From a virus (lineage: Duplodnaviria > Heunggongvirae > Uroviricota > Caudoviricetes), in the IMG/VR virus record IMGVR_UViG_2681813321_000026, positions 1-24,073 of that record: a stretch of DNA of 24,073 nucleotides, one strand, 5' to 3'. Position numbers and translations under genes: made by a program. The first letter of the stretch is position 1, and every line of letters starts with the position of its first letter. The notes below the pieces were generated by a model, which was not told the origin of the DNA, ran no database searches, and saw nothing but the letters and a program-made list of their open reading frames with translations. Positions 2,893 to 24,073 of the stretch are shown piece by piece.

Positions 2893-3860
2893 TACGCAAC
2901 CGCCTTTTTCTTATGGAAAACCAGCTCTCGAACCTGATCACCGTTCATGAGCATATTGTTGAAATCATCGTGATCCGGCCAGTACACGCTCACGCGCTGC
3001 AGGTCATTCTTTGCCATCAGATTGGCATGAGCACATTCGCAAGCCGCAGCCAGCCCGGTGGCGCTGTTCTCGTCACGGTCGGCAAAAATAATCAGGTGCA
3101 GAACACCAGCTGGTACGCGAAACTTTTTCATAAAGCCGCTGTTAATGGTTGCCCAGGTGTTCACGTTATAAATCTGGTGCGCTGACAGCGCTGTTTCGAT
3201 GCCTTCGGCGATACCCAGAGTGCTGGCGACAGGAAACATGCGGATAGCTACAGAACGAGCGTGATCCAAATAGTTATCTTCCTGCAGGGATTTGAGGCGC
3301 TTTGCACTGCTACCGATATCTGCTTTTTTATCACCATCAAGCAGAGTCTGGTGCAGATAGCACAACTCCCCTTTATCGTCCGTAGCAAGTGAATAAAGAG
3401 ACTGGAACACACTCCCGTTGTGTCTCTGCCTGGCATTGAACCGGATCGCCTCAGCAGGAAGACTGAATATTCCACGAGAATTAAGATACGCTGCGCCGGA
3501 TGTACCACGCAGTGCCTCCAGTTTTGAAAACTTGCTCAATACCCGTTTGCGTAAGCTGGTGGCGCTGCTGGTTACCGGGATTTTAACCCGTTGGTAATCA
3601 TTACCGATCAGGCGGTCTATTTCGGTACAAATCTCGTTAAATGGCTTCGCCTGTGTCAGGGTGACAAGTTTCATACCATCGCCACTACCACATACACAGA
3701 TCCACGTTCCTGCACCGTCGCGGTCGTCAATTCGGAACTTGCCACGTGCACCGCATACCGGGCATTCACCCTTGAAGTGATTTTTTCCGGTTATCGGCGG
3801 CAGACCGAAGTGCTCTAATATTTCAGGCCAGCGGCCTTTCGCTGCATCTGCTGTTTTCAT
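2892..3860 (-). CDS. DNA primase (N-terminal zinc-ribbon plus Toprim domain)
   Basis: 322-aa ORF with CPVCGARGKFRIDDRDGAGTWICVCG zinc-ribbon motif typical of phage/plasmid primases; ATG at 3860 lies 1 nt after helicase stop. Confidence 0.8.
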   Translation of the reverse strand: MKTADAAKGRWPEILEHFGLPPITGKNHFKGECPVCGARGKFRIDDRDGAGTWICVCGSGDGMKLVTLTQAKPFNEICTEIDRLIGNDYQRVKIPVTSSATSLRKRVLSKFSKLEALRGTSGAAYLNSRGIFSLPAEAIRFNARQRHNGSVFQSLYSLATDDKGELCYLHQTLLDGDKKADIGSSAKRLKSLQEDNYLDHARSVAIRMFPVASTLGIAEGIETALSAHQIYNVNTWATINSGFMKKFRVPAGVLHLIIFADRDENSATGLAAACECAHANLMAKNDLQRVSVYWPDHDDFNNMLMNGDQVRELVFHKKKAVA

Positions 3861-5520: not shown

Positions 5521-5793
5521 TGTGCAGCTCCCGTGCTGATGAGATAATAATTTTGTGATGTGGTTTTCATGGATTCCCCCTCACATGGCTGGTGGCCTCC
5601 CCAAAGGCTGCCAGCCTCCCTTCTGATTCAGCTCCTCTGAAAAATCACTCTTCCAGGAAGAACCCTTTTCGTTTCTCAGCGCCTGAGCGCTTTGTACTAC
5701 CTTGCTGATACGGGCGTTTTTTTAAATTGCGCCCTTAAGACAGTGATCTACTTAACCAATGGATCTCTCCTGTTGGAAAAGACCCTATTCCTG

Positions 5794-5836
5794 CCCCAAC
5801 ACCCAATCCCCCCTTACCCCCCTTACCCTCTTCCCC
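5794..5836 (-). other. C-rich (plus) / G-rich (minus) tract with six runs of 3-6 G: potential G-quadruplex motif on the minus strand
   Basis: Plus strand ccccaacacccaatccccccttaccccccttaccctcttcccc; includes tandem ccccccTTA units. Lies in the 413-bp non-coding gap between the 102-aa ORF and the helicase gene. Confidence 0.4.
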
Positions 5837-5933
5837 ATAAAAACGTACTACTTCCCTAGTACACATGAGGAGTTGGGTCAGTTGGTTGCCAACCTGAACA
5901 GGCACCTTTAAGCCTGCTTCTGTTCGGGTACCT

Positions 5934-6242
5934 TTAAACCCGAAACAGTGAGGAGCGCGATTGCGATCCAGCCAGGGGAGGTTCGGCTGTATACCCCTGT
6001 AAAGCTCTGCCCTGATTTCTTACAAACAGGCGGAGCCTTGTGTTTGCTTCGTGCCTTGCTCTGTTCTCCTTGCGGAATGAAACAGGCTCAGCGTCAAAAG
6101 TGATTTCGTATACCTCCGCATATTTCAGGGCAACCTTCCGTCTCAGTGACGGAGGCAGCCCCTGTAACTGCTGCTGAATCCACTCTTCGTCTGCCTGGCA
6201 GTACCTAGATGGCATCTCTGTCTGAACGTAATTCTGGGACAT
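5934..6242 (-). CDS. Hypothetical protein (102 aa) in the cII/replication-initiator position
   Basis: ATG at 6242 with strong SD (GGGAGGTGA); overlaps the 3' end of the cro-like gene by 38 nt in another frame. No motif recognised. Confidence 0.55.
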   Translation of the reverse strand: MSQNYVQTEMPSRYCQADEEWIQQQLQGLPPSLRRKVALKYAEVYEITFDAEPVSFRKENRARHEANTRLRLFVRNQGRALQGYTAEPPLAGSQSRSSLFRV

Positions 6243-6492
6243 ACAAGCCCTTCACCTCCCCCGTGCGCGCTAAGCTTGGATGTGGAAAAAGCTCTGATAG
6301 GTCTGGCCGAAATTCATACGCTTGGATCTTTCCGTCGACAGCTGCAACCAATAACGGCACAAATTCTGGTGAAATCTTGTTCTTGCAGTTCAACCAATCG
6401 CAGACTGTTGACTGGGCCTTTCCGCATCGCTTGGCTAAGGCTTGCTGACTTCCAAGAATCTCAATAGCTTTCTCTATGGCTTTATGTTTCAT
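6205..6492 (-). CDS. Cro-like HTH regulator (Cro/CI-type, YdaS-like), 95 aa
   Basis: Start set to ATG at 6492 (MKHKAIEKAIEILGSQQALAKRCGKAQSTVCDW, HTH) with SD AGGAGA 7 nt upstream; ORF track start at 6543 is an upstream in-frame extension. Divergent from cI. Confidence 0.75.
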   Translation of the reverse strand: MKHKAIEKAIEILGSQQALAKRCGKAQSTVCDWLNCKNKISPEFVPLLVAAVDGKIQAYEFRPDLSELFPHPSLARTGEVKGLYVPELRSDRDAI

Positions 6493-6493
6493 A

Positions 6494-6578
6494 ATCGCAT
6501 CTCCTATTGAACGCATAATAACAACAGGAAAAGCGATATTCAACGTTAAACATAGAATATTTATCGGAAAGCCGATAA
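6494..6578. promoter_or_regulatory. OR-like divergent promoter/operator region between cro-like and cI genes
   Basis: Palindromic 14-mers ATCGCatctCCtAT (6494-6507) and ATCGGaaagCCGAT (6563-6576). Candidate minus-strand cro promoter TTGAAT-N17-TATTAT (-35 at 6543..6538, -10 at 6520..6515). Candidate plus-strand -10 TAGAAT at 6553-6558 with poor -35 (PRM-like). Confidence 0.5.
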
Positions 6579-6611
6579 ACTAGCCAAGATAGAGAGGGGA
6601 GGAAAATCGCA

Positions 6612-7304
6612 ATGACATTTTCAGAACGACTTGATTTAGCTATGCGCAACGCAAAATTTACGCAAGGTAGGCTGGCCAAAGAAGTGGGTATGGCTCAGTC
6701 CAGTGTTAATCAACTACTTAACAAAGCCAACGGTTCCAGAAAAACAGTCGAAATAGCAAAAGTTTTGGGCGTTAACCCGGAATGGCTCGCATCGGGTGTT
6801 GGCCCAATGGAAATCGTGACCTCTGCAGACTCACACCAAATACGTAACATTTCTGAAGATTGGGTTACTGATTCGTATGTCGTGGATGTTTTAGACATCA
6901 GATATAGTTGCGGACCTGGTAGTTATAACTCTGATTTTCCTGATATTGTCAGATCTATAGCGATAGAACCAGGATACGCATCAAGAGTTTTTGGCGGCAG
7001 ACCAGCATCAGCAATCAAAGCAATAAACGCCCACGGCGACAGTATGAAAGGCACAATAGACCCTGAAGACTTGGTATTTGTAGATGTATCAGTTCGCACA
7101 TTTAATGGTGATGGTATATACGCCTTTACATACTCTGGAACATCGCACATCAAAAGACTTCAAAAAATCAAAGATACTCTAACGGTGATATCTGACAACC
7201 CAGCTTACAAGGATTGGGCTATCGAACCGGAAGACTTCGAACAACTTCACATTGACGGAAAAGTAATTGTCAGTTGGCCTATGACACTACACCGTTTTGC
7301 ATAA
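6612..7304 (+). CDS. cI: CI-type prophage repressor (N-terminal XRE HTH, C-terminal S24 LexA-like peptidase domain)
   Basis: 230 aa; HTH QGRLAKEVGMAQSSVNQL; S24 catalytic motifs GDSM and downstream Lys; SD GGAGG upstream of ATG. Confidence 0.9.
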   Translation: MTFSERLDLAMRNAKFTQGRLAKEVGMAQSSVNQLLNKANGSRKTVEIAKVLGVNPEWLASGVGPMEIVTSADSHQIRNISEDWVTDSYVVDVLDIRYSCGPGSYNSDFPDIVRSIAIEPGYASRVFGGRPASAIKAINAHGDSMKGTIDPEDLVFVDVSVRTFNGDGIYAFTYSGTSHIKRLQKIKDTLTVISDNPAYKDWAIEPEDFEQLHIDGKVIVSWPMTLHRFA

Positions 7305-7322
7305 GCAAAAATCATTTAACCC

Positions 7323-7348
7323 GCCCACTCTTAAGTGGGCTTTTTTTT
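7323..7348 (+). terminator. Rho-independent terminator after cI
   Basis: Perfect 7-bp stem gcccact/agtgggc with 4-nt loop ctta followed by T8. Confidence 0.8.
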
Positions 7349-7356
7349 GGGAAAAA

Positions 7357-7398
7357 ATCGATAAACCGATTGACAGGTGAAATCGGTAAACCTATTAT
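7357..7398 (+). promoter_or_regulatory. PL-like promoter with two operator sites
   Basis: TTGACA (7370-7375), 17-nt spacer, TATTAT (7393-7398). Operator-like 14-mers ATCGAtaaaCCGAT (7357-7370, overlapping -35) and ATCGGtaaaCCtAT (7382-7395, overlapping spacer/-10), same family as the OR sites. Confidence 0.7.
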
Positions 7399-7447
7399 CT
7401 TGACATAGGTATCGAACTCACCAAAGCAATTATAGAGGATGAGAAAA

Positions 7448-7858
7448 ATGTCATCGTATATGGGATTACCAACAAATCAGCACGATGCTCTTGAGAATAT
7501 TCAGCTCTTAGTAGGGACTGGTGCACTACTGTATAGCAGCAATAACCCTGAGTTAATTGAACTTGCCAGCTCCATCCTGGCTGTAACTCAAAAATATAGC
7601 CTCACCGCGTCACGTTTATGCAAACAAAATTTAGCTATTAATTCCCAGAATCGGATTCGCACCCAACGCGAAACCTGCGGCTTAACAACCGCCGAACTCG
7701 CTAGGCTGCTCGATCTCGATGAAGAAATTATCATCCAGTGGGAGAGCGGAGAGTACGAACCAACCATCAGCATGCTTATCCCTCTGGCTAATGTTCTTGG
7801 CTGTGATCCAATGTTGTTATTGACTGATGCTTATAAACAAAATCAGGAGGAAGCATAA
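7448..7858 (+). CDS. Hypothetical protein with C-terminal XRE-family HTH (first gene of PL operon)
   Basis: Start set to ATG 7448 (SD GAGGA 8 nt upstream); track start 7439 has no spacing to the SD. C-terminal HTH LTTAELARLLDLDEEIIIQWESGEYEPTISMLIPLANVLG. Confidence 0.6.
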   Translation: MSSYMGLPTNQHDALENIQLLVGTGALLYSSNNPELIELASSILAVTQKYSLTASRLCKQNLAINSQNRIRTQRETCGLTTAELARLLDLDEEIIIQWESGEYEPTISMLIPLANVLGCDPMLLLTDAYKQNQEEA

Positions 7859-7859
7859 G

Positions 7860-8051
7860 ATGAAAATGTTCAAAGGCCTTACCAACGAACCGGAGACAAC
7901 TTTTCATCACATTGCCGTACTGCTTGAAGCGGGGTTAATCATTTCGGCTTCCGGTGATGAAGAATGTGATGAACTTTCGGATGATATCTTTTTACTGGCA
8001 CAACAATACGCCAGAAGCGCATGCGATGCATTTAAGGAGCAAAGAACATGA
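7860..8051 (+). CDS. Small acidic hypothetical protein (63 aa)
   Basis: ATG 7860 preceded by AGGAGG (9-nt spacing); track ORF 7827 is an in-frame upstream extension overlapping the previous gene. Confidence 0.55.
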   Translation: MKMFKGLTNEPETTFHHIAVLLEAGLIISASGDEECDELSDDIFLLAQQYARSACDAFKEQRT

Positions 8052-8239
8052 AAACTCCATTAAATATTCTTGAGGAAGTGGCAGCACAAATAAAAGAGAA
8101 TACATCAATGCTTGAATTTATATTTAAGAATTCGCCCGACTCAGGAGAGACAGACGATTATTTATGTTGCCTCATTCGCTCCATGAATAAAACCTGTGAA
8201 ATGGCTTACGCGTATATCGACACACTGCGCAACGAATAA
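8048..8239 (+). CDS. Small acidic hypothetical protein (63 aa)
   Basis: ATG overlaps stop of previous gene (ATGA coupling). Confidence 0.55.
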   Translation: MKTPLNILEEVAAQIKENTSMLEFIFKNSPDSGETDDYLCCLIRSMNKTCEMAYAYIDTLRNE

Positions 8240-8423
8240 AGAAAACTCAATAAACAATCACCCATAAAAACATAACGGTCTCTGGTCGGGAATTTCCACA
8301 ACCTGAAAATGGTGGTGATGCATGAAAAACAGAAGTGCTTATAAAACCGCATTATTAATGGCTAATGCAGGATACTGGTCAGTTGCAATACTGTTTCTCA
8401 GGAAAGCATACGGGAAATAACAA

Positions 8424-8783
8424 ATGACACATGAACCCATTAATACATATCGTCGCCGTATAGCTGTTGCGGCACTCCATCGAATAAAACGTAAAACAGG
8501 TGGTAATCTGCTTATTGTTGACCTTCCTGATGGGAACATTACGACCATAGAAATAACTGAACAGTTTATAAACCAGTTGCTGTTACGCTTCGAAGGTATT
8601 ACCCGTGGTGAATTGGGCCGGGTGGAGGGTGAAACCGAAATCCACACTGCATACCAGAATGCTATCGGGATTAATCAACATACTGAATACCTGACTGAAA
8701 CCGGAAAGTTAATTATAGACAACCTTTTTCAAGAGATTATTGATTACGCGAAAGAAAAATATATCAGCGGAGGAATTAACTGA
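8424..8783 (+). CDS. Hypothetical protein (119 aa)
   Basis: ORF with ATG start; stop overlaps start of next gene. No motif recognised. Confidence 0.5.
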   Translation: MTHEPINTYRRRIAVAALHRIKRKTGGNLLIVDLPDGNITTIEITEQFINQLLLRFEGITRGELGRVEGETEIHTAYQNAIGINQHTEYLTETGKLIIDNLFQEIIDYAKEKYISGGIN

Positions 8784-8998
8784 TGGCTAATTTATCCCCT
8801 GTATCTGTTGTGCACGAAAAAGTGCAGATCGTTATGACAATTGAAAATGGCCAAGTCACAGGTGTCTGCAAAGTCCGCGATGGCGAGCTGATTGCCAGCA
8901 TGGATACATTCATACGGCTGGCAGAAAGAGCGGGGTATCAGATAACAGCACCTGCTCAGGAGGAAACCGGTGGCATTAACAGCAACACGCATTCCTGA
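8783..8998 (+). CDS. Hypothetical protein (71 aa)
   Basis: ATG 8783 with GGAGGA 8 nt upstream, overlapping stop of previous gene. Confidence 0.55.
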   Translation: MANLSPVSVVHEKVQIVMTIENGQVTGVCKVRDGELIASMDTFIRLAERAGYQITAPAQEETGGINSNTHS

Positions 8999-9184
8999 GC
9001 GGATCCACCGGCAGGCATTGCAGGTCCTGTTGTTGTACCGATGCCGACGGATATTTCCGCATCGGATACAGCGCACCGGATATCTCAGTCTGAAGGTTAA
9101 CCGTCGCTGGCGGCTGTTATCGAAAGACGACGGCCGGAACTGGGAAGTAATGAGTCATGAACGTTATTCGGGAGAAATAAAGAA

Positions 9185-9577
9185 ATGATCGACAACCGCA
9201 CCGCCAGCACCATTGACCAGGCATTACAGAAACATGATACACCCGTCGGCCCGTTATTTTTTGTAACACGCCACGGAAGAACAAAAAAATGCCTCACCCG
9301 AAAAACGGCAATTCGTTACCTGGCATTCTTTATGACCACCCGCGCTTTTGAACGTTCAGGATTCCGACAACGCTATCCTGACAAGCGTTTTATCTTCAAC
9401 AGGAATGAGATATGGAAACGTGGAGAATCAACCACAGAGTATACCCGCGCACACCAGCGAACAATCAGACGACTGCGCAGACTCATCGCCAGGAAACAGT
9501 ATACAGAAAAATGGTTCAGAAAATATGACACATGGAGCGCCGGATATTACGAACTGATGGCAACAAAACCATTCTGA
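9185..9577 (+). CDS. Hypothetical basic protein (130 aa, Arg/Lys-rich C-terminus)
   Basis: ATG 9185 with GGGAGA upstream. No motif recognised. Confidence 0.5.
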   Translation: MIDNRTASTIDQALQKHDTPVGPLFFVTRHGRTKKCLTRKTAIRYLAFFMTTRAFERSGFRQRYPDKRFIFNRNEIWKRGESTTEYTRAHQRTIRRLRRLIARKQYTEKWFRKYDTWSAGYYELMATKPF

Positions 9578-9637
9578 CGTAAACGAAATTAACCATGACG
9601 CAATTAAATAAGGCAAGCCGAATACATCAGGAGGACC

Positions 9638-9826
9638 ATGAACATTTATTTCAGAATAGTTATATCACTGGCAATTATCACATGTATTTACGGATTAATC
9701 GTTCCGGCCCTCATATCAATGAAGGATACGGTAGCAGTGATTTCTGGCTTTGCTCTGGCGTGTCTGACCCCGCCCTGCATTTATGCCATTTATAAGGGTC
9801 TTTCTTTTTCTAAGGATAAAAGATGA
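9638..9826 (+). CDS. Small membrane protein (62 aa, two predicted TM helices)
   Basis: AGGAGGA upstream of ATG; two hydrophobic stretches; stop overlaps start of SPFH gene (ATGA). Confidence 0.55.
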   Translation: MNIYFRIVISLAIITCIYGLIVPALISMKDTVAVISGFALACLTPPCIYAIYKGLSFSKDKR

Positions 9827-10137
9827 AAAAATTACTTTTTGCTTTAGCCCTTGTTCTGCCGACCATTGGCCTTGTCGGTTGCGATCGCGTTGAGCCTGGT
9901 AATGTGGGCATCAAAGTAAACAAACTGGGCGACGATAAAGGCGTCGGTGAAGTGGTCGGTGTTGGGCGCTACTGGACGGGATGGAACACTGAGGTTTACA
10001 TCTTCCCGACCTTTAAGCAGATGAAGACCTACGATGATCCATTCAGTTTCCAGATGAGTGACGGTACAACCATCGGCTATCACATCGGCGTGGCCTACAA
10101 AGTTGATCCATCCAAAGTTACCACAGTCTTTCAGACC

Positions 10138-15158: not shown

Positions 15159-15761
15159 TAACAATGCAGCCCTGTCGGTCATCAATCCTCTGCTTAATGG
15201 CAATGACAATTATCCGACTTAAATCACAAATCAGACACATGACATAACAGAGTTTGCGAGGTAACACATCGTCCGGTTTCTTCCACCATCGCACCGGACC
15301 AGCGACCATGAGGGGACAACGCCGCGCTCCGTTTACGCGGTAAACCCCGGTGTGTATCGTTTTTGATTATCCCCGCACACTCTCGCAGAGGAGTCTCCCT
15401 GTCGGGCTGCGGTCTCTGTTAATGCAGGAATACGGCGACAATACCGCGCATGGATAATAAGGTCGCTCAACACACTGGCTGTAATTCAGCGGATACCATT
15501 CGGCATTTATCAGTATTCATCACACACTCAACGGTGAATTCTTCATGCGTGGCATTCACTTCATATGTTCGTGAATAACATTCAGTGCATTTACCTCTGA
15601 ACACCTCTTCAATCACTCTTCCAGGAAGAACCCTTTTCGTTTCTCAGCGCCTGAGCGCTTTGTACTACCTTGCTGATACGGGCGTTTTTTTAAATTGCGC
15701 CCTTAAGACAGTGATCTACTTAACCAATGGATCTCTCCTGTTGGAAAAGACCCTATTCCTG

Positions 15762-15804
15762 CCCCAACACCCAATCCCCCCTTACCCCCCTTACCCTCTT
15801 CCCC
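15762..15804 (-). other. Second copy of the C-rich/G-rich potential G-quadruplex tract
   Basis: Identical to 5794-5836. Confidence 0.4.
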
Positions 15805-15901
15805 ATAAAAACGTACTACTTCCCTAGTACACATGAGGAGTTGGGTCAGTTGGTTGCCAACCTGAACAGGCACCTTTAAGCCTGCTTCTGTTCGGGTACC
15901 T

Positions 15902-16210
15902 TTAAACCCGAAACAGTGAGGAGCGCGATTGCGATCCAGCCAGGGGAGGTTCGGCTGTATACCCCTGTAAAGCTCTGCCCTGATTTCTTACAAACAGGCG
16001 GAGCCTTGTGTTTGCTTCGTGCCTTGCTCTGTTCTCCTTGCGGAATGAAACAGGCTCAGCGTCAAAAGTGATTTCGTATACCTCCGCATATTTCAGGGCA
16101 ACCTTCCGTCTCAGTGACGGAGGCAGCCCCTGTAACTGCTGCTGAATCCACTCTTCGTCTGCCTGGCAGTACCTAGATGGCATCTCTGTCTGAACGTAAT
16201 TCTGGGACAT
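15902..16210 (-). CDS. Hypothetical protein (102 aa), copy 2
   Basis: Identical to 5934-6242. Confidence 0.55.
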   Translation of the reverse strand: MSQNYVQTEMPSRYCQADEEWIQQQLQGLPPSLRRKVALKYAEVYEITFDAEPVSFRKENRARHEANTRLRLFVRNQGRALQGYTAEPPLAGSQSRSSLFRV

Positions 16211-16460
16211 ACAAGCCCTTCACCTCCCCCGTGCGCGCTAAGCTTGGATGTGGAAAAAGCTCTGATAGGTCTGGCCGAAATTCATACGCTTGGATCTTTC
16301 CGTCGACAGCTGCAACCAATAACGGCACAAATTCTGGTGAAATCTTGTTCTTGCAGTTCAACCAATCGCAGACTGTTGACTGGGCCTTTCCGCATCGCTT
16401 GGCTAAGGCTTGCTGACTTCCAAGAATCTCAATAGCTTTCTCTATGGCTTTATGTTTCAT
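16173..16460 (-). CDS. Cro-like HTH regulator, copy 2
   Basis: Identical to 6205-6492. Confidence 0.75.
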   Translation of the reverse strand: MKHKAIEKAIEILGSQQALAKRCGKAQSTVCDWLNCKNKISPEFVPLLVAAVDGKIQAYEFRPDLSELFPHPSLARTGEVKGLYVPELRSDRDAI

Positions 16461-16461
16461 A

Positions 16462-16546
16462 ATCGCATCTCCTATTGAACGCATAATAACAACAGGAAAA
16501 GCGATATTCAACGTTAAACATAGAATATTTATCGGAAAGCCGATAA
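16462..16546. promoter_or_regulatory. OR-like promoter/operator region, copy 2
   Basis: Identical to 6494-6578. Confidence 0.5.
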
Positions 16547-16579
16547 ACTAGCCAAGATAGAGAGGGGAGGAAAATCGCA

Positions 16580-17272
16580 ATGACATTTTCAGAACGACTT
16601 GATTTAGCTATGCGCAACGCAAAATTTACGCAAGGTAGGCTGGCCAAAGAAGTGGGTATGGCTCAGTCCAGTGTTAATCAACTACTTAACAAAGCCAACG
16701 GTTCCAGAAAAACAGTCGAAATAGCAAAAGTTTTGGGCGTTAACCCGGAATGGCTCGCATCGGGTGTTGGCCCAATGGAAATCGTGACCTCTGCAGACTC
16801 ACACCAAATACGTAACATTTCTGAAGATTGGGTTACTGATTCGTATGTCGTGGATGTTTTAGACATCAGATATAGTTGCGGACCTGGTAGTTATAACTCT
16901 GATTTTCCTGATATTGTCAGATCTATAGCGATAGAACCAGGATACGCATCAAGAGTTTTTGGCGGCAGACCAGCATCAGCAATCAAAGCAATAAACGCCC
17001 ACGGCGACAGTATGAAAGGCACAATAGACCCTGAAGACTTGGTATTTGTAGATGTATCAGTTCGCACATTTAATGGTGATGGTATATACGCCTTTACATA
17101 CTCTGGAACATCGCACATCAAAAGACTTCAAAAAATCAAAGATACTCTAACGGTGATATCTGACAACCCAGCTTACAAGGATTGGGCTATCGAACCGGAA
17201 GACTTCGAACAACTTCACATTGACGGAAAAGTAATTGTCAGTTGGCCTATGACACTACACCGTTTTGCATAA
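16580..17272 (+). CDS. cI: CI-type prophage repressor, copy 2
   Basis: Identical to 6612-7304. Confidence 0.9.
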   Translation: MTFSERLDLAMRNAKFTQGRLAKEVGMAQSSVNQLLNKANGSRKTVEIAKVLGVNPEWLASGVGPMEIVTSADSHQIRNISEDWVTDSYVVDVLDIRYSCGPGSYNSDFPDIVRSIAIEPGYASRVFGGRPASAIKAINAHGDSMKGTIDPEDLVFVDVSVRTFNGDGIYAFTYSGTSHIKRLQKIKDTLTVISDNPAYKDWAIEPEDFEQLHIDGKVIVSWPMTLHRFA

Positions 17273-17290
17273 GCAAAAATCATTTAACCC

Positions 17291-17316
17291 GCCCACTCTT
17301 AAGTGGGCTTTTTTTT
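17291..17316 (+). terminator. Rho-independent terminator after cI, copy 2
   Basis: Identical to 7323-7348. Confidence 0.8.
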
Positions 17317-17324
17317 GGGAAAAA

Positions 17325-17366
17325 ATCGATAAACCGATTGACAGGTGAAATCGGTAAACCTATTAT
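17325..17366 (+). promoter_or_regulatory. PL-like promoter with operators, copy 2
   Basis: Identical to 7357-7398. Confidence 0.7.
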
Positions 17367-17415
17367 CTTGACATAGGTATCGAACTCACCAAAGCAATTA
17401 TAGAGGATGAGAAAA

Positions 17416-17826
17416 ATGTCATCGTATATGGGATTACCAACAAATCAGCACGATGCTCTTGAGAATATTCAGCTCTTAGTAGGGACTGGTGCACTACTGT
17501 ATAGCAGCAATAACCCTGAGTTAATTGAACTTGCCAGCTCCATCCTGGCTGTAACTCAAAAATATAGCCTCACCGCGTCACGTTTATGCAAACAAAATTT
17601 AGCTATTAATTCCCAGAATCGGATTCGCACCCAACGCGAAACCTGCGGCTTAACAACCGCCGAACTCGCTAGGCTGCTCGATCTCGATGAAGAAATTATC
17701 ATCCAGTGGGAGAGCGGAGAGTACGAACCAACCATCAGCATGCTTATCCCTCTGGCTAATGTTCTTGGCTGTGATCCAATGTTGTTATTGACTGATGCTT
17801 ATAAACAAAATCAGGAGGAAGCATAA
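17416..17826 (+). CDS. Hypothetical protein with C-terminal XRE HTH, copy 2
   Basis: Identical to 7448-7858. Confidence 0.6.
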   Translation: MSSYMGLPTNQHDALENIQLLVGTGALLYSSNNPELIELASSILAVTQKYSLTASRLCKQNLAINSQNRIRTQRETCGLTTAELARLLDLDEEIIIQWESGEYEPTISMLIPLANVLGCDPMLLLTDAYKQNQEEA

Positions 17827-17827
17827 G

Positions 17828-18019
17828 ATGAAAATGTTCAAAGGCCTTACCAACGAACCGGAGACAACTTTTCATCACATTGCCGTACTGCTTGAAGCGG
17901 GGTTAATCATTTCGGCTTCCGGTGATGAAGAATGTGATGAACTTTCGGATGATATCTTTTTACTGGCACAACAATACGCCAGAAGCGCATGCGATGCATT
18001 TAAGGAGCAAAGAACATGA
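17828..18019 (+). CDS. Small acidic hypothetical protein (63 aa), copy 2
   Basis: Identical to 7860-8051. Confidence 0.55.
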   Translation: MKMFKGLTNEPETTFHHIAVLLEAGLIISASGDEECDELSDDIFLLAQQYARSACDAFKEQRT

Positions 18020-18207
18020 AAACTCCATTAAATATTCTTGAGGAAGTGGCAGCACAAATAAAAGAGAATACATCAATGCTTGAATTTATATTTAAGAATT
18101 CGCCCGACTCAGGAGAGACAGACGATTATTTATGTTGCCTCATTCGCTCCATGAATAAAACCTGTGAAATGGCTTACGCGTATATCGACACACTGCGCAA
18201 CGAATAA
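18016..18207 (+). CDS. Small acidic hypothetical protein (63 aa), copy 2
   Basis: Identical to 8048-8239. Confidence 0.55.
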   Translation: MKTPLNILEEVAAQIKENTSMLEFIFKNSPDSGETDDYLCCLIRSMNKTCEMAYAYIDTLRNE

Positions 18208-18391
18208 AGAAAACTCAATAAACAATCACCCATAAAAACATAACGGTCTCTGGTCGGGAATTTCCACAACCTGAAAATGGTGGTGATGCATGAAAAACAG
18301 AAGTGCTTATAAAACCGCATTATTAATGGCTAATGCAGGATACTGGTCAGTTGCAATACTGTTTCTCAGGAAAGCATACGGGAAATAACAA

Positions 18392-18751
18392 ATGACACAT
18401 GAACCCATTAATACATATCGTCGCCGTATAGCTGTTGCGGCACTCCATCGAATAAAACGTAAAACAGGTGGTAATCTGCTTATTGTTGACCTTCCTGATG
18501 GGAACATTACGACCATAGAAATAACTGAACAGTTTATAAACCAGTTGCTGTTACGCTTCGAAGGTATTACCCGTGGTGAATTGGGCCGGGTGGAGGGTGA
18601 AACCGAAATCCACACTGCATACCAGAATGCTATCGGGATTAATCAACATACTGAATACCTGACTGAAACCGGAAAGTTAATTATAGACAACCTTTTTCAA
18701 GAGATTATTGATTACGCGAAAGAAAAATATATCAGCGGAGGAATTAACTGA
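18392..18751 (+). CDS. Hypothetical protein (119 aa), copy 2
   Basis: Identical to 8424-8783. Confidence 0.5.
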   Translation: MTHEPINTYRRRIAVAALHRIKRKTGGNLLIVDLPDGNITTIEITEQFINQLLLRFEGITRGELGRVEGETEIHTAYQNAIGINQHTEYLTETGKLIIDNLFQEIIDYAKEKYISGGIN

Positions 18752-18966
18752 TGGCTAATTTATCCCCTGTATCTGTTGTGCACGAAAAAGTGCAGATCGT
18801 TATGACAATTGAAAATGGCCAAGTCACAGGTGTCTGCAAAGTCCGCGATGGCGAGCTGATTGCCAGCATGGATACATTCATACGGCTGGCAGAAAGAGCG
18901 GGGTATCAGATAACAGCACCTGCTCAGGAGGAAACCGGTGGCATTAACAGCAACACGCATTCCTGA
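18751..18966 (+). CDS. Hypothetical protein (71 aa), copy 2
   Basis: Identical to 8783-8998. Confidence 0.55.
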   Translation: MANLSPVSVVHEKVQIVMTIENGQVTGVCKVRDGELIASMDTFIRLAERAGYQITAPAQEETGGINSNTHS

Positions 18967-19152
18967 GCGGATCCACCGGCAGGCATTGCAGGTCCTGTTG
19001 TTGTACCGATGCCGACGGATATTTCCGCATCGGATACAGCGCACCGGATATCTCAGTCTGAAGGTTAACCGTCGCTGGCGGCTGTTATCGAAAGACGACG
19101 GCCGGAACTGGGAAGTAATGAGTCATGAACGTTATTCGGGAGAAATAAAGAA

Positions 19153-19545
19153 ATGATCGACAACCGCACCGCCAGCACCATTGACCAGGCATTACAGAAA
19201 CATGATACACCCGTCGGCCCGTTATTTTTTGTAACACGCCACGGAAGAACAAAAAAATGCCTCACCCGAAAAACGGCAATTCGTTACCTGGCATTCTTTA
19301 TGACCACCCGCGCTTTTGAACGTTCAGGATTCCGACAACGCTATCCTGACAAGCGTTTTATCTTCAACAGGAATGAGATATGGAAACGTGGAGAATCAAC
19401 CACAGAGTATACCCGCGCACACCAGCGAACAATCAGACGACTGCGCAGACTCATCGCCAGGAAACAGTATACAGAAAAATGGTTCAGAAAATATGACACA
19501 TGGAGCGCCGGATATTACGAACTGATGGCAACAAAACCATTCTGA
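19153..19545 (+). CDS. Hypothetical basic protein (130 aa), copy 2
   Basis: Identical to 9185-9577. Confidence 0.5.
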   Translation: MIDNRTASTIDQALQKHDTPVGPLFFVTRHGRTKKCLTRKTAIRYLAFFMTTRAFERSGFRQRYPDKRFIFNRNEIWKRGESTTEYTRAHQRTIRRLRRLIARKQYTEKWFRKYDTWSAGYYELMATKPF

Positions 19546-19605
19546 CGTAAACGAAATTAACCATGACGCAATTAAATAAGGCAAGCCGAATACATCAGGA
19601 GGACC

Positions 19606-19794
19606 ATGAACATTTATTTCAGAATAGTTATATCACTGGCAATTATCACATGTATTTACGGATTAATCGTTCCGGCCCTCATATCAATGAAGGATACGGT
19701 AGCAGTGATTTCTGGCTTTGCTCTGGCGTGTCTGACCCCGCCCTGCATTTATGCCATTTATAAGGGTCTTTCTTTTTCTAAGGATAAAAGATGA
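19606..19794 (+). CDS. Small two-TM membrane protein (62 aa), copy 2
   Basis: Identical to 9638-9826. Confidence 0.55.
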   Translation: MNIYFRIVISLAIITCIYGLIVPALISMKDTVAVISGFALACLTPPCIYAIYKGLSFSKDKR

Positions 19795-20618
19795 AAAAAT
19801 TACTTTTTGCTTTAGCCCTTGTTCTGCCGACCATTGGCCTTGTCGGTTGCGATCGCGTTGAGCCTGGTAATGTGGGCATCAAAGTAAACAAACTGGGCGA
19901 CGATAAAGGCGTCGGTGAAGTGGTCGGTGTTGGGCGCTACTGGACGGGATGGAACACTGAGGTTTACATCTTCCCGACCTTTAAGCAGATGAAGACCTAC
20001 GATGATCCATTCAGTTTCCAGATGAGTGACGGTACAACCATCGGCTATCACATCGGCGTGGCCTACAAAGTTGATCCATCCAAAGTTACCACAGTCTTTC
20101 AGACCTACCGCAAAGGCGTGGACGACATTACCGACACCGACCTGCGCCAGAAGATAGCCGACGCACTCAACCGACTGGCCAGCAAAATGACCACCGACAA
20201 ATTTATCGACGGCGGCAAGTCTGAGCTGCTGGATGCAGCTCTTAAAGACATTCAGGAAGAAATGACGCCCATCGGTATTCAGGTAATGAGCCTCTCATAT
20301 GTGGGTAAGCCGGAGTACCCACCTACTGTTATCGACAGCATTAATGCCAAAGTCACGGCGAACCAGAAAACCCTGCAACGCGAGCAGGAAGTAAAACAGC
20401 GCGAAGCGGAAGCCAACATGTTGCGCGCGGAAGCTGCCGGACAGGCAGATGCGATTCGCACAAAAGCCCAGGCCGAAGCCGATGCTATTCGTTTACGCGG
20501 TGAAGCTCTGCGCCAGAACCCCGGTGTTATGGAGCTGGAAGCCATCAACAAGTGGAACGGTACACTGCCGCAATACATGACCAGCGGTGCCAACACACCA
20601 TTTATTCAGGTTAAGTAA
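19791..20618 (+). CDS. SPFH/band-7 (HflC/stomatin-like) domain lipoprotein, 275 aa
   Basis: Lipoprotein signal MKKLLFALALVLPTIGLVGC (lipobox LVGC); SPFH-like core and C-terminal Ala/Glu/Gln/Arg-rich coiled-coil segment (REQEVKQREAEANMLRAEAAGQADAIRTKAQAEADAIRLRGEAL) typical of HflC/QmcA-type proteins; SD AAGGA upstream. Confidence 0.8.
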   Translation: MKKLLFALALVLPTIGLVGCDRVEPGNVGIKVNKLGDDKGVGEVVGVGRYWTGWNTEVYIFPTFKQMKTYDDPFSFQMSDGTTIGYHIGVAYKVDPSKVTTVFQTYRKGVDDITDTDLRQKIADALNRLASKMTTDKFIDGGKSELLDAALKDIQEEMTPIGIQVMSLSYVGKPEYPPTVIDSINAKVTANQKTLQREQEVKQREAEANMLRAEAAGQADAIRTKAQAEADAIRLRGEALRQNPGVMELEAINKWNGTLPQYMTSGANTPFIQVK

Positions 20619-20661
20619 TACATATGCCCGGTATTACACGCCGGGCTGTCTGGAGATAAAA

Positions 20662-21411
20662 ATGAATATTGTAACCATCAACAACAAACAGTTTCCGGTA
20701 ATCGAATATCGCGGTCAGCGTGTTGTGACATTTGCAATAATTGATGACGTCCACCAGCGCCCGGAAGGTACCGCCCGTGCTGCGTTTAACCGCAACCGTT
20801 CTCACTTTATCGAAGGGGTGGATTTTCTTGAAATGACTGCGGACGTAATACGTACGGAGTCACTTTCTGATGCCTTTGCCGCGCGAACTGCCAAAGGGAT
20901 CATTCTTTTCGAGTCTGGTTACCTGATGTTGACGAAGCCTTTTAACGATGCTCTTGCATGGCAGGTTCAGCGCGAACTGGTTAACAGCTATTTCCGAACT
21001 CACGCGCCGCTGACGGAAATGGAGATGATCGCTGCAATGGCCGCCGATGCCGTTCGCCAGCAGAAGCGCCTGAGTCATGTTGAAGAGAAGATCGAAACGG
21101 TCACCAAAGCTGTGGAGAACATCAAACGCGGCACAATGCGCACCGGATATGTCGGTTACCGCCAGGTGGTAGCCAAAAGCGGAATGAGTGACGCCAAGTG
21201 TCGGAATCTGGTCAACGCCTACCACATCCCTACCGACACGCACGAATTTATGACTCCGGACGGTCTGTTGTCTCGCAGGGCTGTCGTCGAGCTTGAGACA
21301 TTTATGGCGGCGTTCCACCAAATGATGTCAGAGGCTGAACCACGCGGCACACGCTGGTATCACCCGAAGATGGGGCTTTTTCAGGTAATCGGATGGGAGG
21401 ATAAAGCATGA
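20662..21411 (+). CDS. Phage antirepressor-like protein with N-terminal ORF6N/KilA-N-type domain (249 aa)
   Basis: Start set to ATG 20662 (SD GGAG 6 nt upstream; track start 20587 is an upstream extension overlapping the SPFH gene end). N-terminus MNIVTINNKQFPVIEYRGQRVVTFAIIDDVHQRPEGTARAAFNRNRSHFIEGVDFLE resembles ORF6N antirepressor domains. Confidence 0.6.
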   Translation: MNIVTINNKQFPVIEYRGQRVVTFAIIDDVHQRPEGTARAAFNRNRSHFIEGVDFLEMTADVIRTESLSDAFAARTAKGIILFESGYLMLTKPFNDALAWQVQRELVNSYFRTHAPLTEMEMIAAMAADAVRQQKRLSHVEEKIETVTKAVENIKRGTMRTGYVGYRQVVAKSGMSDAKCRNLVNAYHIPTDTHEFMTPDGLLSRRAVVELETFMAAFHQMMSEAEPRGTRWYHPKMGLFQVIGWEDKA

Positions 21412-21976
21412 TCATCCAGTCAAAACTTATTCGCGCCGCTCTGGTGTGCGCTGCTAAAAACGACGTTCGTTATTACCTGAACGGTCTTCACATCACGCCA
21501 AAACATATTGAGGCAACCAATGGTTTCGTAGCACTGCGCATGACTCACGGCATCCGGACGAAGAAAAACATCATTGTCCAGTTCGAAGGTGGCGTCCCGG
21601 CCAAAGCCGAAACGACAGAGCTGATTTTTAGTAAAGAGCCGATCCTGTTCATCGCGACCAGTTTCAGCGCCGGCTGTCCATTACCGGCATTAAATTGGTG
21701 GACGGTTGTTTTCCGGATTTGGAACGCATCATTCCGAAAAAATTTGACCTCTGTACACACCCGGTGATCCAGGCGGGTTACCTGAGTTATCCAGAGAAGA
21801 TGTTTGGTCGTGAGCGTAAATTTATTCCCGTCCAGTTACGTTCCTCCGGTGACGGGCAAGCGGTCAGAATTCAGTTTGATTCCATCATCAACTCAATGTA
21901 TGGCAATCCTGAATTTGTTGTGATGCCTTGTCGTGATCATGGCGATTTCAATGTGGCTCAGGAGCATCCGGAATGA
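21408..21976 (+). pseudogene. DnaN (beta sliding clamp) domain II-III-like gene interrupted by a -1 frameshift near 21672-21676
   Basis: Frame-0 ORF 21408-21767 begins MIIQSKLIRAALVCAAKNDVRYYLNGLHI...ATNGFVALR (compare E. coli DnaN RLIEATQFSMAHQDVRYYLNGM...ATDGHRLAV). Frame-2 ORF open from 21635 to 21976 reads ...IKLVDGCFPDLERIIPKK...VVMPCRD (compare DnaN SKLVDGRFPDYRRVLPK...VVMPMRL). No SD or ATG for the second frame; ATG 21408 overlaps the antirepressor stop. Confidence 0.5.
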
Positions 21977-22011
21977 AAATCGAATACCAGGACGCCGCAG
22001 GAGGTGAATCA

Positions 22012-22095
22012 ATGAGCTGGCCTGATGCAATCGTAACTCTGGGGGTGGTATTCGCAGTAGCGTTTGTTGTGTTCTCAATTTGTCGATGGGGATAA
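22012..22095 (+). CDS. Small hydrophobic peptide (27 aa; 40 aa if started at coupled ATG 21973)
   Basis: Strong SD AGGAGGT 7 nt upstream of ATG 22012; translation MSWPDAIVTLGVVFAVAFVVFSICRWG is a single TM helix. An in-frame ATG at 21973 overlaps the stop of the upstream gene. Confidence 0.35.
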   Translation: MSWPDAIVTLGVVFAVAFVVFSICRWG

Positions 22096-22099
22096 CCAC

Positions 22100-22342
22100 A
22101 TGTTCGCTTTGATTCAACGCGGTCAGATATACACGGACAGAGCCGGATACCCCGTGGTGATTACTCGCATCACTGAGCACTCAGTGTTCTTTCGACGGAT
22201 GGACGGACGATCCGGGCGGGTACGCATTGGTGAGTTAAACTGCCTGTTCGAACATATTGACCACCAGGAGTACCGCAAAATTCTCGCGGACACTGAGCAG
22301 GAAAAGCACCTGAAAAAATTACGAGCCATAAAAAGGAAGTAA
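22100..22342 (+). CDS. Hypothetical protein (80 aa)
   Basis: ATG 22100 with GGGGA 7 nt upstream; track start 22064 is a TTG upstream extension. Confidence 0.5.
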   Translation: MFALIQRGQIYTDRAGYPVVITRITEHSVFFRRMDGRSGRVRIGELNCLFEHIDHQEYRKILADTEQEKHLKKLRAIKRK

Positions 22343-22345
22343 AGA

Positions 22346-22480
22346 ATGAATAAAGCATTTGAACGATGGGTCCACCAGCGTTACGGCAATCGCTATGACC
22401 TGACGCGAGATGTTGACGGCTTCTACTGTCGTGAAGTTGTGAAGCGAATGTTTGAAGTGTGGTGCCACTGCCGTGGATGA
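22346..22480 (+). CDS. Hypothetical small Cys-containing protein (44 aa)
   Basis: ATG 22346 with AAGGAAG upstream; MNKAFERWVHQRYGNRYDLTRDVDGFYCREVVKRMFEVWCHCRG; below track size cutoff. Confidence 0.35.
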   Translation: MNKAFERWVHQRYGNRYDLTRDVDGFYCREVVKRMFEVWCHCRG

Positions 22481-22498
22481 AAATTTTATGAGGTTGGC

Positions 22499-22753
22499 AT
22501 GCAGACAATCATCTATCAGATAACCCCCAGCAAATGGTGTACGGAGAGAGTCCTCATTGCATCAACAGGGCTAAAGCCTGGCACCATTGAGCGGGCAAGA
22601 AGAAAGTCATGGATGCAGGGAAAAGAATACCGCCATTACGCTGTAGAAGGTGATCCGGGGCACTACAGTGAATGCCTGTACAACATCGAAGAAATTATGC
22701 GATGGATCGAAAACCAGAAACAACCAGGTGCCAAAAATGCAAGTTCCGGTTAA
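22499..22753 (+). CDS. Excisionase-like protein (84 aa)
   Basis: Immediately upstream of the integrase gene, same strand; motif pattern W..E.L...TGLKPGTIERARRKSWMQGKEYRH resembles prophage excisionase-like (DUF1233-type) proteins. Confidence 0.55.
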   Translation: MQTIIYQITPSKWCTERVLIASTGLKPGTIERARRKSWMQGKEYRHYAVEGDPGHYSECLYNIEEIMRWIENQKQPGAKNASSG

Positions 22754-22786
22754 CCTGTTAATGCTCCTGGACGTCTGGGAGGTTTA

Positions 22787-24073
22787 ATGAGTAACGCATC
22801 ATACCCGACAGGCGTTGAAAACCATGGAGGATCACTCCGTATATGGTTTCACTATAATGGCAAACGTGTCAGAGAAAACCTCGGTGTTCCTGACACAGCC
22901 AAAAACCGGAAGATCGCTGGTGAACTTCGCACTTCCGTTTGTTTTGCAATCAGAATGGGGAGTTTCGACTACGCCGCGCAGTTCCCTAATTCCCCTAACC
23001 TGAAACACTTTGGTCTGGGAAAAAGAGAGATAACCGTTAAGGCACTTTCGGAAAAATGGTTGGACCTTAAGAAAATTGAGATTTGTGCGAATGCACTTAA
23101 TCGTTACCAGTCAGTAATTAAAAACATGTTGCCTATGTTGGGTGAGAAAAAACTGGTTTCATCCATAACAAAAGAGGATTTACTTTTCGCAAGGAGAGAT
23201 TTGTTGACCGGTTACCAAAAGCTTTCTAATGGAAAGATTTCTTCCATAAAAGGGCGCTCAGTGGTCACAGTAAACTACTATATGACAACCATAGCTGGAA
23301 TGTTTCAATTTGCAACAGATAATGGTTATACCTCAGGAAACCCATTTAACGGTCTGGCACCCTTAAAAAAGTCCAAGGTAAAACCAGATCCTCTCACCCG
23401 TGACGAATTTATTCGTTTTATTGAAGCTTGCCGTCATCAACAAACAAAAAACCTGTGGATTCTCGCTGTATACACGGGTATTCGTCACGGGGAGCTGGTA
23501 TCGCTGGCATGGGAAGATATAGATCTTAAAGCAAGGACTATAACCATCCGTAGGAATTATACAAAACTTGGCGAATTCACTCCACCAAAAACCGATGCTG
23601 GCACCGGAAGGACAATTCATCTGGTTCAACCAGCTATTGATGCTCTTAAAAGTCAGGCGGAAATGACCATGCTTGGAAAGCAACATTCTGTAGAGGTAAA
23701 GCAGAGGGAATATGGGAGAAGTACTGTGCATAAATGCACTTTTGTTTTTAGTCCTCAGGTAATAAAACAGCGGCAGTTTTCCGGACCGCACTATAAGGTT
23801 GACTCCATCAGGGAGTCATGGACAAGTATCTTAAAACGCGCAGGTCTGAGACACAGAAAATCGTACCAATCCAGGCATACTTATGCATGCTGGTCACTTG
23901 CCGCTGGAGCTAATCCTAGTTTTATCGCAAGCCAGATGGGCCACACAAACGCACAAATGGTATTCAATGTTTACGGAGCATGGATGAAAGACAACAATCA
24001 CGAACAGATAGAACTCCTTAACAAAAGACTATCTGAAAGTGTCCCATGTATGCCCCATAAGAAAGCTGGGTAA
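22787..24073 (+). CDS. int: Tyrosine-type site-specific integrase (428 aa)
   Basis: SD GGGAGG upstream; C-terminal catalytic region with RHGEL, SRHTYACW, HTNAQMVFNVYGAW (catalytic Tyr) typical of tyrosine recombinases. Last prophage gene before the expected attachment site beyond the window. Confidence 0.9.
   Translation: MSNASYPTGVENHGGSLRIWFHYNGKRVRENLGVPDTAKNRKIAGELRTSVCFAIRMGSFDYAAQFPNSPNLKHFGLGKREITVKALSEKWLDLKKIEICANALNRYQSVIKNMLPMLGEKKLVSSITKEDLLFARRDLLTGYQKLSNGKISSIKGRSVVTVNYYMTTIAGMFQFATDNGYTSGNPFNGLAPLKKSKVKPDPLTRDEFIRFIEACRHQQTKNLWILAVYTGIRHGELVSLAWEDIDLKARTITIRRNYTKLGEFTPPKTDAGTGRTIHLVQPAIDALKSQAEMTMLGKQHSVEVKQREYGRSTVHKCTFVFSPQVIKQRQFSGPHYKVDSIRESWTSILKRAGLRHRKSYQSRHTYACWSLAAGANPSFIASQMGHTNAQMVFNVYGAWMKDNNHEQIELLNKRLSESVPCMPHKKAG

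Follow-up and report, generated by a model that had tools for sequence, protein, structure and literature searches.

Does a very short open reading frame (ORF) near the excisionase and integrase genes of a tailed phage encode a protein, and what would such a protein do? The ORF in question lies at 22012-22095 on the plus strand of a 24,073-nucleotide (nt) stretch of viral DNA (Caudoviricetes; positions 1 to 24,073 of IMG/VR record IMGVR_UViG_2681813321_000026), the whole of which is referred to here as the window. It has 27 codons and a TAA stop, and its product, MSWPDAIVTLGVVFAVAFVVFSICRWG, is a predicted single-pass membrane peptide. As set out below, the ORF is very probably a real protein-coding gene. 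The explanation favored for it, taken as a whole and held with modest confidence, is that it constitutes a phage mini-gene for an autonomous small modulator of the inner membrane.

Conservation and coding potential

The gene starts at an internal ATG (22012-22014) and ends at a TAA (22093-22095), within an enclosing frame of 40 codons at 21973-22095 on the same plus strand (40 amino acids, aa). Its size does not set it apart from chance, as the stretch 19500-24073 is overlapped by 80 ORFs with 20 aa or more. It rises above chance because of its Shine-Dalgarno (SD) sequence and, above all, because of its conservation elsewhere. The SD element AGGAGGT (21999-22005, plus strand; AGGAGG at 21999-22004) stands 7 nt ahead of the ATG at 22012. 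The duplex of AGGAGG with the anti-SD sequence has an energy of -11.6 kcal/mol, which ranks 1 among 20 gene starts in the window, and among the 877 ATGs of both strands the site falls in the top 0.3%. A sequence-only reading of the window had described a 27-aa peptide with one transmembrane (TM) segment and one of the best ribosome-binding sites of the stretch; both descriptions hold, the ORF being present with one predicted TM helix and its site being the best of the set.

Annotated records, IMG/VR and species genomes supplied 100 loci in which conservation was assessed. Every locus has exactly 27 codons, no in-frame stop and an ATGA start, and the second codon is always AGC, ACN or AAT. As a result of the ATGA start, the ATG overlaps the TGA of the preceding gene in most loci. 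The loci comprise 20 distinct nucleotide sequences and, counting one allele from protein P0003, 15 distinct peptides, in which M1, W3, P4, A6, G11, A15, R25 and W26 are invariant and A17, Y/F21 and S22 nearly so. The remaining two plus-strand frames contain stops in all 20 variants.

Substitutions among these variants are distributed as in a coding sequence under constraint. The ratio of nonsynonymous to synonymous divergence (dN/dS, Nei-Gojobori method, NG86) ranges from 0.08 to 0.61 across six clades, with dS reaching about 1.8. Three disjoint pairs, pooled, give a proportion of synonymous differences (pS) of 0.56 and of nonsynonymous differences (pN) of 0.18 (pN/pS 0.32). Synonymous differences make up 33 of 64, where 25% would be expected (binomial p = 4.6e-6). 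Variable sites number 14, 12 and 21 at the first, second and third codon positions, and third positions hold 42 of the 77 inferred changes.

Judged by sequence comparison, the conserved unit is the 27-codon ORF and not the 40-codon form. The 13-codon N-terminal extension, MKIEYQDAAGGES (21973-22011, plus strand), is non-conserved and confined to loci in which a gene for a "beta clamp domain-containing protein" lies upstream. The 27-codon ORF is taken as the conserved gene because P0003 has exactly this extension in front of a different, strongly diverged allele of the 27-aa part, and because AlphaFold2 (AF2) predicts the extension to be disordered (predicted local distance difference test, pLDDT, about 54). 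A protein search with the 40-aa query retrieved only three near-identical proteins. P0001 is the 40-aa form with one substitution (98% identical) and occurs on 427 contigs; in E. coli JNEC-KY202 (locus L001) the 40-aa form is annotated as a hypothetical protein by PGAP.

The extension arises because the remnant of a DUF551 gene lies behind an unrelated gene. About 30 nt from the 3′ end of an ancestral DUF551/Ea22-like gene are kept at 21984-22015 (plus strand; frame ...TRTPQEVNQ, then a stop), and the vestigial TGA of this remnant (22013-22015) overlaps the peptide ATG as ATGA. The same ...CCGCAGGAGGTGAATCAATGA terminates intact DUF551 genes (ending ...HWMPLPEPPQEVNQ before the stop) in L091, L097, L098 and others. 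In a megablast search with 21400-22800, homology to Shiga toxin (Stx) and Rac-type phages starts at about 21981-21993, just ahead of the SD.

An alternative, translationally coupled start at 21973 had also been proposed, and it stands in part. The ATG at 21973 does overlap the stop codon of the upstream beta clamp gene (TGA, 21974-21976). This ATG has only a weak SD (-6.6 kcal/mol), however, and the coupling is broken in the window. The upstream gene (21408-21976, plus strand) carries a 1-nt deletion after 21644, located by alignment to JNEC-KY202, in which the gene is intact and encodes 189 aa. Its window version consists of two ORFs, 21408-21767 and 21695-21976; because of the deletion its translation ends at 21767, and coupling at 21973 is thereby lost. 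The window copy is probably a pseudogene or the product of a sequencing error.

Distribution and annotation

A tblastn search with the 27-mer found the gene in 70 phage records, including 933W, VT2-Sakai, Min27, BP-4795, ArgO145 and Av-05, the last being a lytic phage of the Vequintavirinae. In IMG/VR, a pattern scan placed the ORF on at least 486 viral contigs. Of 5426 complete E. coli genomes, 1002 carry it according to blastn, in up to 4 copies each; the 1344 places so located include 150 on plasmids. The plasmid-type allele, used as a tblastn query, was found on 180 plasmids from Escherichia (154), Salmonella (25) and Klebsiella (1). These are mostly of about 86-118 kb, and 174 are non-mobilizable; one inspected carrier has a DNA polymerase III theta gene nearby, like P1. 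Conservation in related prophages, which the sequence-only reading had named as a check, is therefore strongly positive in phages, IMG/VR and E. coli genomes. Under a strict pattern, a scan of species-representative genomes gave matches in Escherichia/Shigella alone, apart from two very short contigs that look like contaminants: L093 (369 bp, Acinetobacter idrijaensis) and L095 (431 bp, Xanthomonas pisi). Both hold DUF551-peptide sequence of the E. coli phage type, and in view of their size and this content the Acinetobacter and Xanthomonas matches are probably contamination. The Rac and CPS-53 (yfdS, DUF551) elements of E. coli K-12 have no copy of the peptide gene.

The 27-codon ORF is unannotated in all 12 annotated records inspected, and the annotated forms met were the 40-codon form in L001 and one 29-aa GenBank entry. 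Prodigal has a minimum gene length of 90 nt, and the 84 nt of the peptide gene fall below it. Neither the 27-aa nor the 40-aa form has a significant match in Pfam, PHROGs, NCBIfam, PADLOC or PDB sequences, the sub-threshold family matches being limited to phrog_8826 (E = 0.28) and KdpF, under its cut-off. The peptide sequence was not found in the literature, including the supplements of the Sakai small-gene and Enterobacteriaceae microproteome studies. A HMMER search over 1.84 billion representative proteins gave 36 matches at E<=1e-3, most of which are the 27-mer with spurious extensions; among the others are probable distant relatives, encoded on phage-like contigs with a GC content of 36% and 61%. 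P0034 was set aside as probably spurious, since it clusters with a single other protein, an unrelated 457-aa amidohydrolase. The peptide family appears to be undescribed, while small single-TM proteins of phages and bacteria are well known as a kind.

Movement as a cassette

As shown by alignment of carriers, the ORF and its SD move as a discrete cassette of about 85-100 nt between unrelated flanks. For instance, ArgO145 and L100 are 99% identical in the ORF and 45-62% identical in the flanks, which is background for this alignment. The window and BP-4795 give the reverse picture, with 91% identity in the downstream flank and 65% in the ORF. The DNA that is co-inherited across contexts amounts to the 84-nt ORF and about 12-20 nt of SD only.

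The genes on either side of the cassette are diverse. The start nearly always forms an ATGA with the stop of the preceding gene, as shown across the loci, and that gene is typically a mosaic Ead/Ea22-like or DUF551 gene. The 100 loci have 48 distinct upstream proteins with at least 5 unrelated C-termini. Most combine an Ead/Ea22-like N-terminus with one of several C-terminal types: DUF551 ends (...HWMPLPEPPQEVNQ), truncated DUF551 (...ERMPDDRQEVNQ), 933W p77, Av-05 gp123, and ...GLISVEDILR. In the window-type context the Ea22/DUF551 gene has been lost and the peptide is intact, which argues for independence from the upstream gene. Downstream lie DUF4222-xis-int (window, BP-4795, PhiR5_1, L103), hok/sok (933W, L099, L100, L102, L106), a toxin-antitoxin (TA) pair (ArgO145), or an opposite-strand gene or intrinsic terminator (L008, L091).

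Proximity to hok/sok is recurrent, the peptide gene lying about 150-300 nt upstream of it in L005 (933W), L099, L100, L102 and L106. Going by the layout of hok mRNA, the hok promoter may overlap the 3′ end of the peptide gene. In L106, where the array order is DUF551-peptide-hok, another small hydrophobic ORF (3119-3223; 34 aa, MSDDISLAMEGALAVVAVVGVYCLVVFLMDRLGN, with SD AAGGAGG) separates hok from the peptide gene.

Predicted product

The product is predicted to be a single TM helix. AF2 models one helix from W3 to W26 (residues 16-39 of the 40-mer) with pLDDT 87-94. The peptide consists of a short acidic N-cap (M-x-W-P-D/E), an uncharged hydrophobic helix of 19-20 residues and a basic aromatic C-cap (R-W-G). 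Across 17 variants, columns 6-24 are free of charged residues, and G11xxxA15, followed by S22, forms a small-xxx-small motif. On a simple Hessa-type scale, residues A6-C24 of the window allele sum to a predicted insertion energy of -2.3 kcal/mol. A lipoprotein or Sec signal peptide was rejected from the sequence, F-S-I-C being no lipobox and the N-terminus being acidic. The gene also lacks the setting of a holin gene: it is found in early-left/exo-xis or nin regions, with Ea22/DUF551, DUF4222, xis/int or hok as neighbors, and not in a lysis cassette beside an endolysin. Four proteins (P0012, P0015, P0018 and P0025) carry in-frame (AM)n or (AV)n repeats within the helix, by which the peptide grows to 31-35 residues. 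The DNA unit implied by the (AM)n expansions is GCGATG, and P0012 occurs on 9 contigs, one of which is a 4.86-Mb chromosome.

By the positive-inside rule, the peptide would be oriented in the inner membrane with its N-terminus out and its C-terminus in. The coat protein of phage Pf3 is built alike: a short acidic tail at the N-terminus is followed by one hydrophobic helix and, at the C-terminus, by a tail that is basic and aromatic (…R-W…). It inserts N-out/C-in by a Sec-independent, YidC-dependent route, and the likeness suggests that the peptide may use an insertion route of the Pf3 type. The peptide differs from Pf3 coat protein in not being a virion protein of a filamentous phage and in its length (27 versus 44 aa), and there is no homology between them.

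The closest functional parallels are small single-pass modulators such as KdpF, AcrZ, MgtS, MgrB, PmrR and CydX. These share with the peptide a length below 50 aa, one uncharged TM helix, a small-xxx-small motif (here G11xxxA15), interfacial Trp/Arg caps, purifying selection and the fact that gene callers routinely overlook them. The peptide differs from them in being phage-borne, cassette-like and coupled to an upstream gene. Its match to the KdpF profile (TIGR02115) is weak, covering 12 residues at E = 0.024 and 14.7 bits against a cut-off of 26.85, and does not amount to homology. Superinfection-exclusion proteins (T4 Imm/Sp, HK97 gp15, P22 SieA) are likewise phage-encoded accessory proteins of the inner membrane and often moron-like. 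They are larger, with at least 80 aa, and often multi-pass, and they have no similarity to the peptide.

Under the favored explanation, the gene would be transcribed with the early-left operon during infection or induction. Its strong SD would direct translation, and loci with an intact ATGA overlap could in addition use termination-reinitiation, which is possible at such stop-start overlaps. The peptide would then insert into the inner membrane in the orientation given above, and its small-residue motif would pack against another membrane protein, of host or phage, and modulate it. It would thus act as known bacterial small TM proteins do and not as a pore-forming type I toxin.

Several points weigh against this explanation. 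The evidence indicates no particular target. Predicted insertion energies of the other alleles are marginal, from -0.9 to +1.6 kcal/mol, with several at +0.2 to +1.6, and a conserved helix face at 100 degrees is not significant, being matched or exceeded in 4735 of 10000 shuffles. The antisense frame that shares its wobble positions with the sense frame has a pN/pS of 0.37, so the ratio alone cannot pick the strand; the antisense frame is excluded only because it has no conserved start, and by its context. An antisense gene was rejected on these grounds: there is no start at all in the window or in 933W, one variant contains a stop, and the frame would continue into unrelated flanks. In the sense ORF, on the other hand, start and stop are both fixed, and each of the 17 distinct upstream contexts has an SD-like element ahead of the ATG (-4.7 to -11.6 kcal/mol).

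Expression signals and alternative explanations

The sequence-only reading had likened the peptide to host-killing or division-inhibiting factors and to type I toxins. It is quite unlikely that the peptide kills the host, depolarizes the membrane or blocks division, whether as an antisense-guarded type I toxin or as an unguarded "kil" product made after induction. It is a small and very hydrophobic product (27 aa, one predicted TM helix), and it shares size, hydrophobicity, prophage location and frequent hok/sok adjacency with the type I toxins Hok/Gef, TisB, ShoB, DinQ, Ibs and Ldr, of which TisB, ShoB and DinQ are of the same size; the link to hok/sok is positional only. Neither an antisense RNA antitoxin with its own promoter nor a toxin promoter of its own with repressed translation was found. 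No sigma-70-like promoter was detected on either strand of 21400-22800, no Rfam family matches the peptide locus at the gathering threshold or at E<=1, and neither strand folds more stably than its shuffles (z = +1.29 for the plus strand and +0.46 for the minus strand). The search for antisense RNA signals was accordingly negative by promoter scan, Rfam and minus-strand folding. Since a strong SD sits in RNA that folds no better than shuffles, there is no sign of a sequestered SD; the strongest SD of the window and coupling within an operon are the opposite of tight translational repression. Because the co-inherited DNA is the ORF and SD only, the cassette has no room for an antitoxin gene. 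Neither form of the peptide matches the Hok/Gef profile (PF01848) or another toxin family in Pfam, NCBIfam or PADLOC, and the uncharged helix is unlike amphipathic or charged pore-formers. The type I toxin comparison thus fails on every point examined beyond size, hydrophobicity and location. As to "kil" functions, the early-left operon also houses lambda kil and Rac kilR, and the peptide gene resembles those for lambda Kil, Rac KilR and Qin DicB as a small accessory gene of the pL operon expressed on induction. These, however, are soluble FtsZ/MinC-directed proteins of 47-73 aa, whereas the peptide is a predicted TM helix with no sequence similarity to them.

A different, unlikely possibility is that the peptide is a detachable membrane anchor or subunit for the upstream Ead/Ea22-like or DUF551 protein, in which case the stop-start overlap would provide matched synthesis. 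Such overlap is seen in most of the 100 loci, the majority of the 48 upstream proteins are Ead/Ea22-like with DUF551-type ends, and P0019 and P0028 are Ead/Ea22-like proteins to which the peptide is joined in frame as a C-terminal tail, with DUF4222-xis-int still downstream (further in-frame fusions are P0016 and P0030). The P0019/P0028 fusions, however, are a single lineage (88% identical over 104 residues) that has kept the internal SD and ATG. The unrelated upstream C-termini, with near-identical alleles behind unrelated genes, argue against a dedicated partner, as does the window-type context, which has only a 30-nt remnant and keeps the peptide intact on hundreds of contigs. A speculative proposal, of low probability, makes the peptide a mobile "split tail-anchor" that is made together with the preceding hypervariable Ead/Ea22-like or DUF551 protein and recruits it to the inner membrane. 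If this were true, the in-frame fusions would be a fossil of that arrangement, the peptide would be a component so far missing from the exo-xis/Ea22 module, by which the lysis-lysogeny decision of Shiga-toxin phages is biased, and phenotypes credited to ea22-region fragments would be partly due to it. Finally, the peptide might be inert, either a translated spacer that hands ribosomes to the DUF4222 gene or a chance ORF in a conserved recombination boundary. Its stop does lie 4 nt before the DUF4222 start, its RWG codons (CGATGGGGA) supply the weak SD of that gene, and lambdoid mosaics have conserved module boundaries. This is very improbable, as constraint at the amino-acid level persists with dS up to saturation, and loci in which DUF4222 is replaced by a terminator, hok/sok or an opposite-strand gene show no change in length or in W-P-[DE]-A, G11, A15 and R-W; the probable HMMER relatives in contigs of 36% and 61% GC also count against it.

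The autonomous modulator thus remains the favored explanation. As it has no promoter, Rfam match or fold of its own, the gene is read as part of the early-left operon, in the distal portion of which it sits, in agreement with the location first proposed. Programmed frameshifting across the ATGA was considered and dropped, no slippery heptamer being visible by eye. In the 933W-like phage 24B, mRNAs of the ea22 region reach the abundance of N mRNA after infection, and they are also expressed efficiently upon induction (PMC4195576).

Genomic neighborhood

The genes neighboring the peptide gene are all on the plus strand. The peptide gene had been placed just upstream of xis and int, which is not quite so, since two ORFs intervene. 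The DUF4222 gene (22100-22342; Pfam PF13973, E = 8e-14; phrog_285) comes first, followed by a 44-codon ORF (22346-22480; phrog_3871, E = 2e-32) that is an annotated 135-nt gene in BP-4795 and PhiR5_1 and only a partial pseudogene in JNEC-KY202. The excisionase gene (DUF1233, 22499-22753) and the integrase gene (22787-24073, the window end) form the end of the same operon. A single terminator-like hairpin lies within the DUF4222 gene at 22171-22186, one being found where 0.9 would be expected by chance. A positional analogy to ralR/ralA was dropped, Rac RcbA having no similarity to the DUF4222 neighbor.

Other features of the window lie further away. A 62-aa ORF with two hydrophobic stretches, recognized by eye (19606-19794), overlaps the start of an SPFH/Band-7 gene (19791-20618) by 4 nt. 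Together they resemble a membrane module; the ORF has no Pfam match, and neither gene was matched in PADLOC. A perfect direct repeat of 4,495 bp (100% identical) occupies 5643-10137 and 15611-20105, at a spacing of 9,968 bp, and includes two helix-turn-helix (HTH) genes, one of them of the S24/HTH repressor-like type, as well as the opening 315 nt of the SPFH gene. At the end of copy 1 is a truncated SPFH ORF, which abuts minus-strand portal/terminase/Nu1 genes, and copy 2 runs on into the intact SPFH gene. The repeat could reflect tandem or recombined prophages, or an assembly artifact. The sole Rfam match of the window above its gathering score is the small RNA STnc100 at 921-1093 on the minus strand (108 bits, E = 5e-23).

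Implications for phage biology

If the peptide is made, about 1 in 5 complete E. coli genomes and many P1-like phage-plasmids carry an overlooked conserved gene, as do the reference Shiga-toxin phages 933W, VT2-Sakai and BP-4795. The gene lies within or at the end of the exo-xis/Ea22 region. Earlier work used frameshift mutants and plasmid fragments to study how this region affects lysogeny and the induction of prophages (PMC4195576, PMC10834534). Constructs of this kind derived from cassette-bearing phages, such as the 933W-like 24B, may carry or perturb a hidden, translationally coupled ORF. The locus also offers a clean case of a microprotein gene that acts as an independent recombination cassette.

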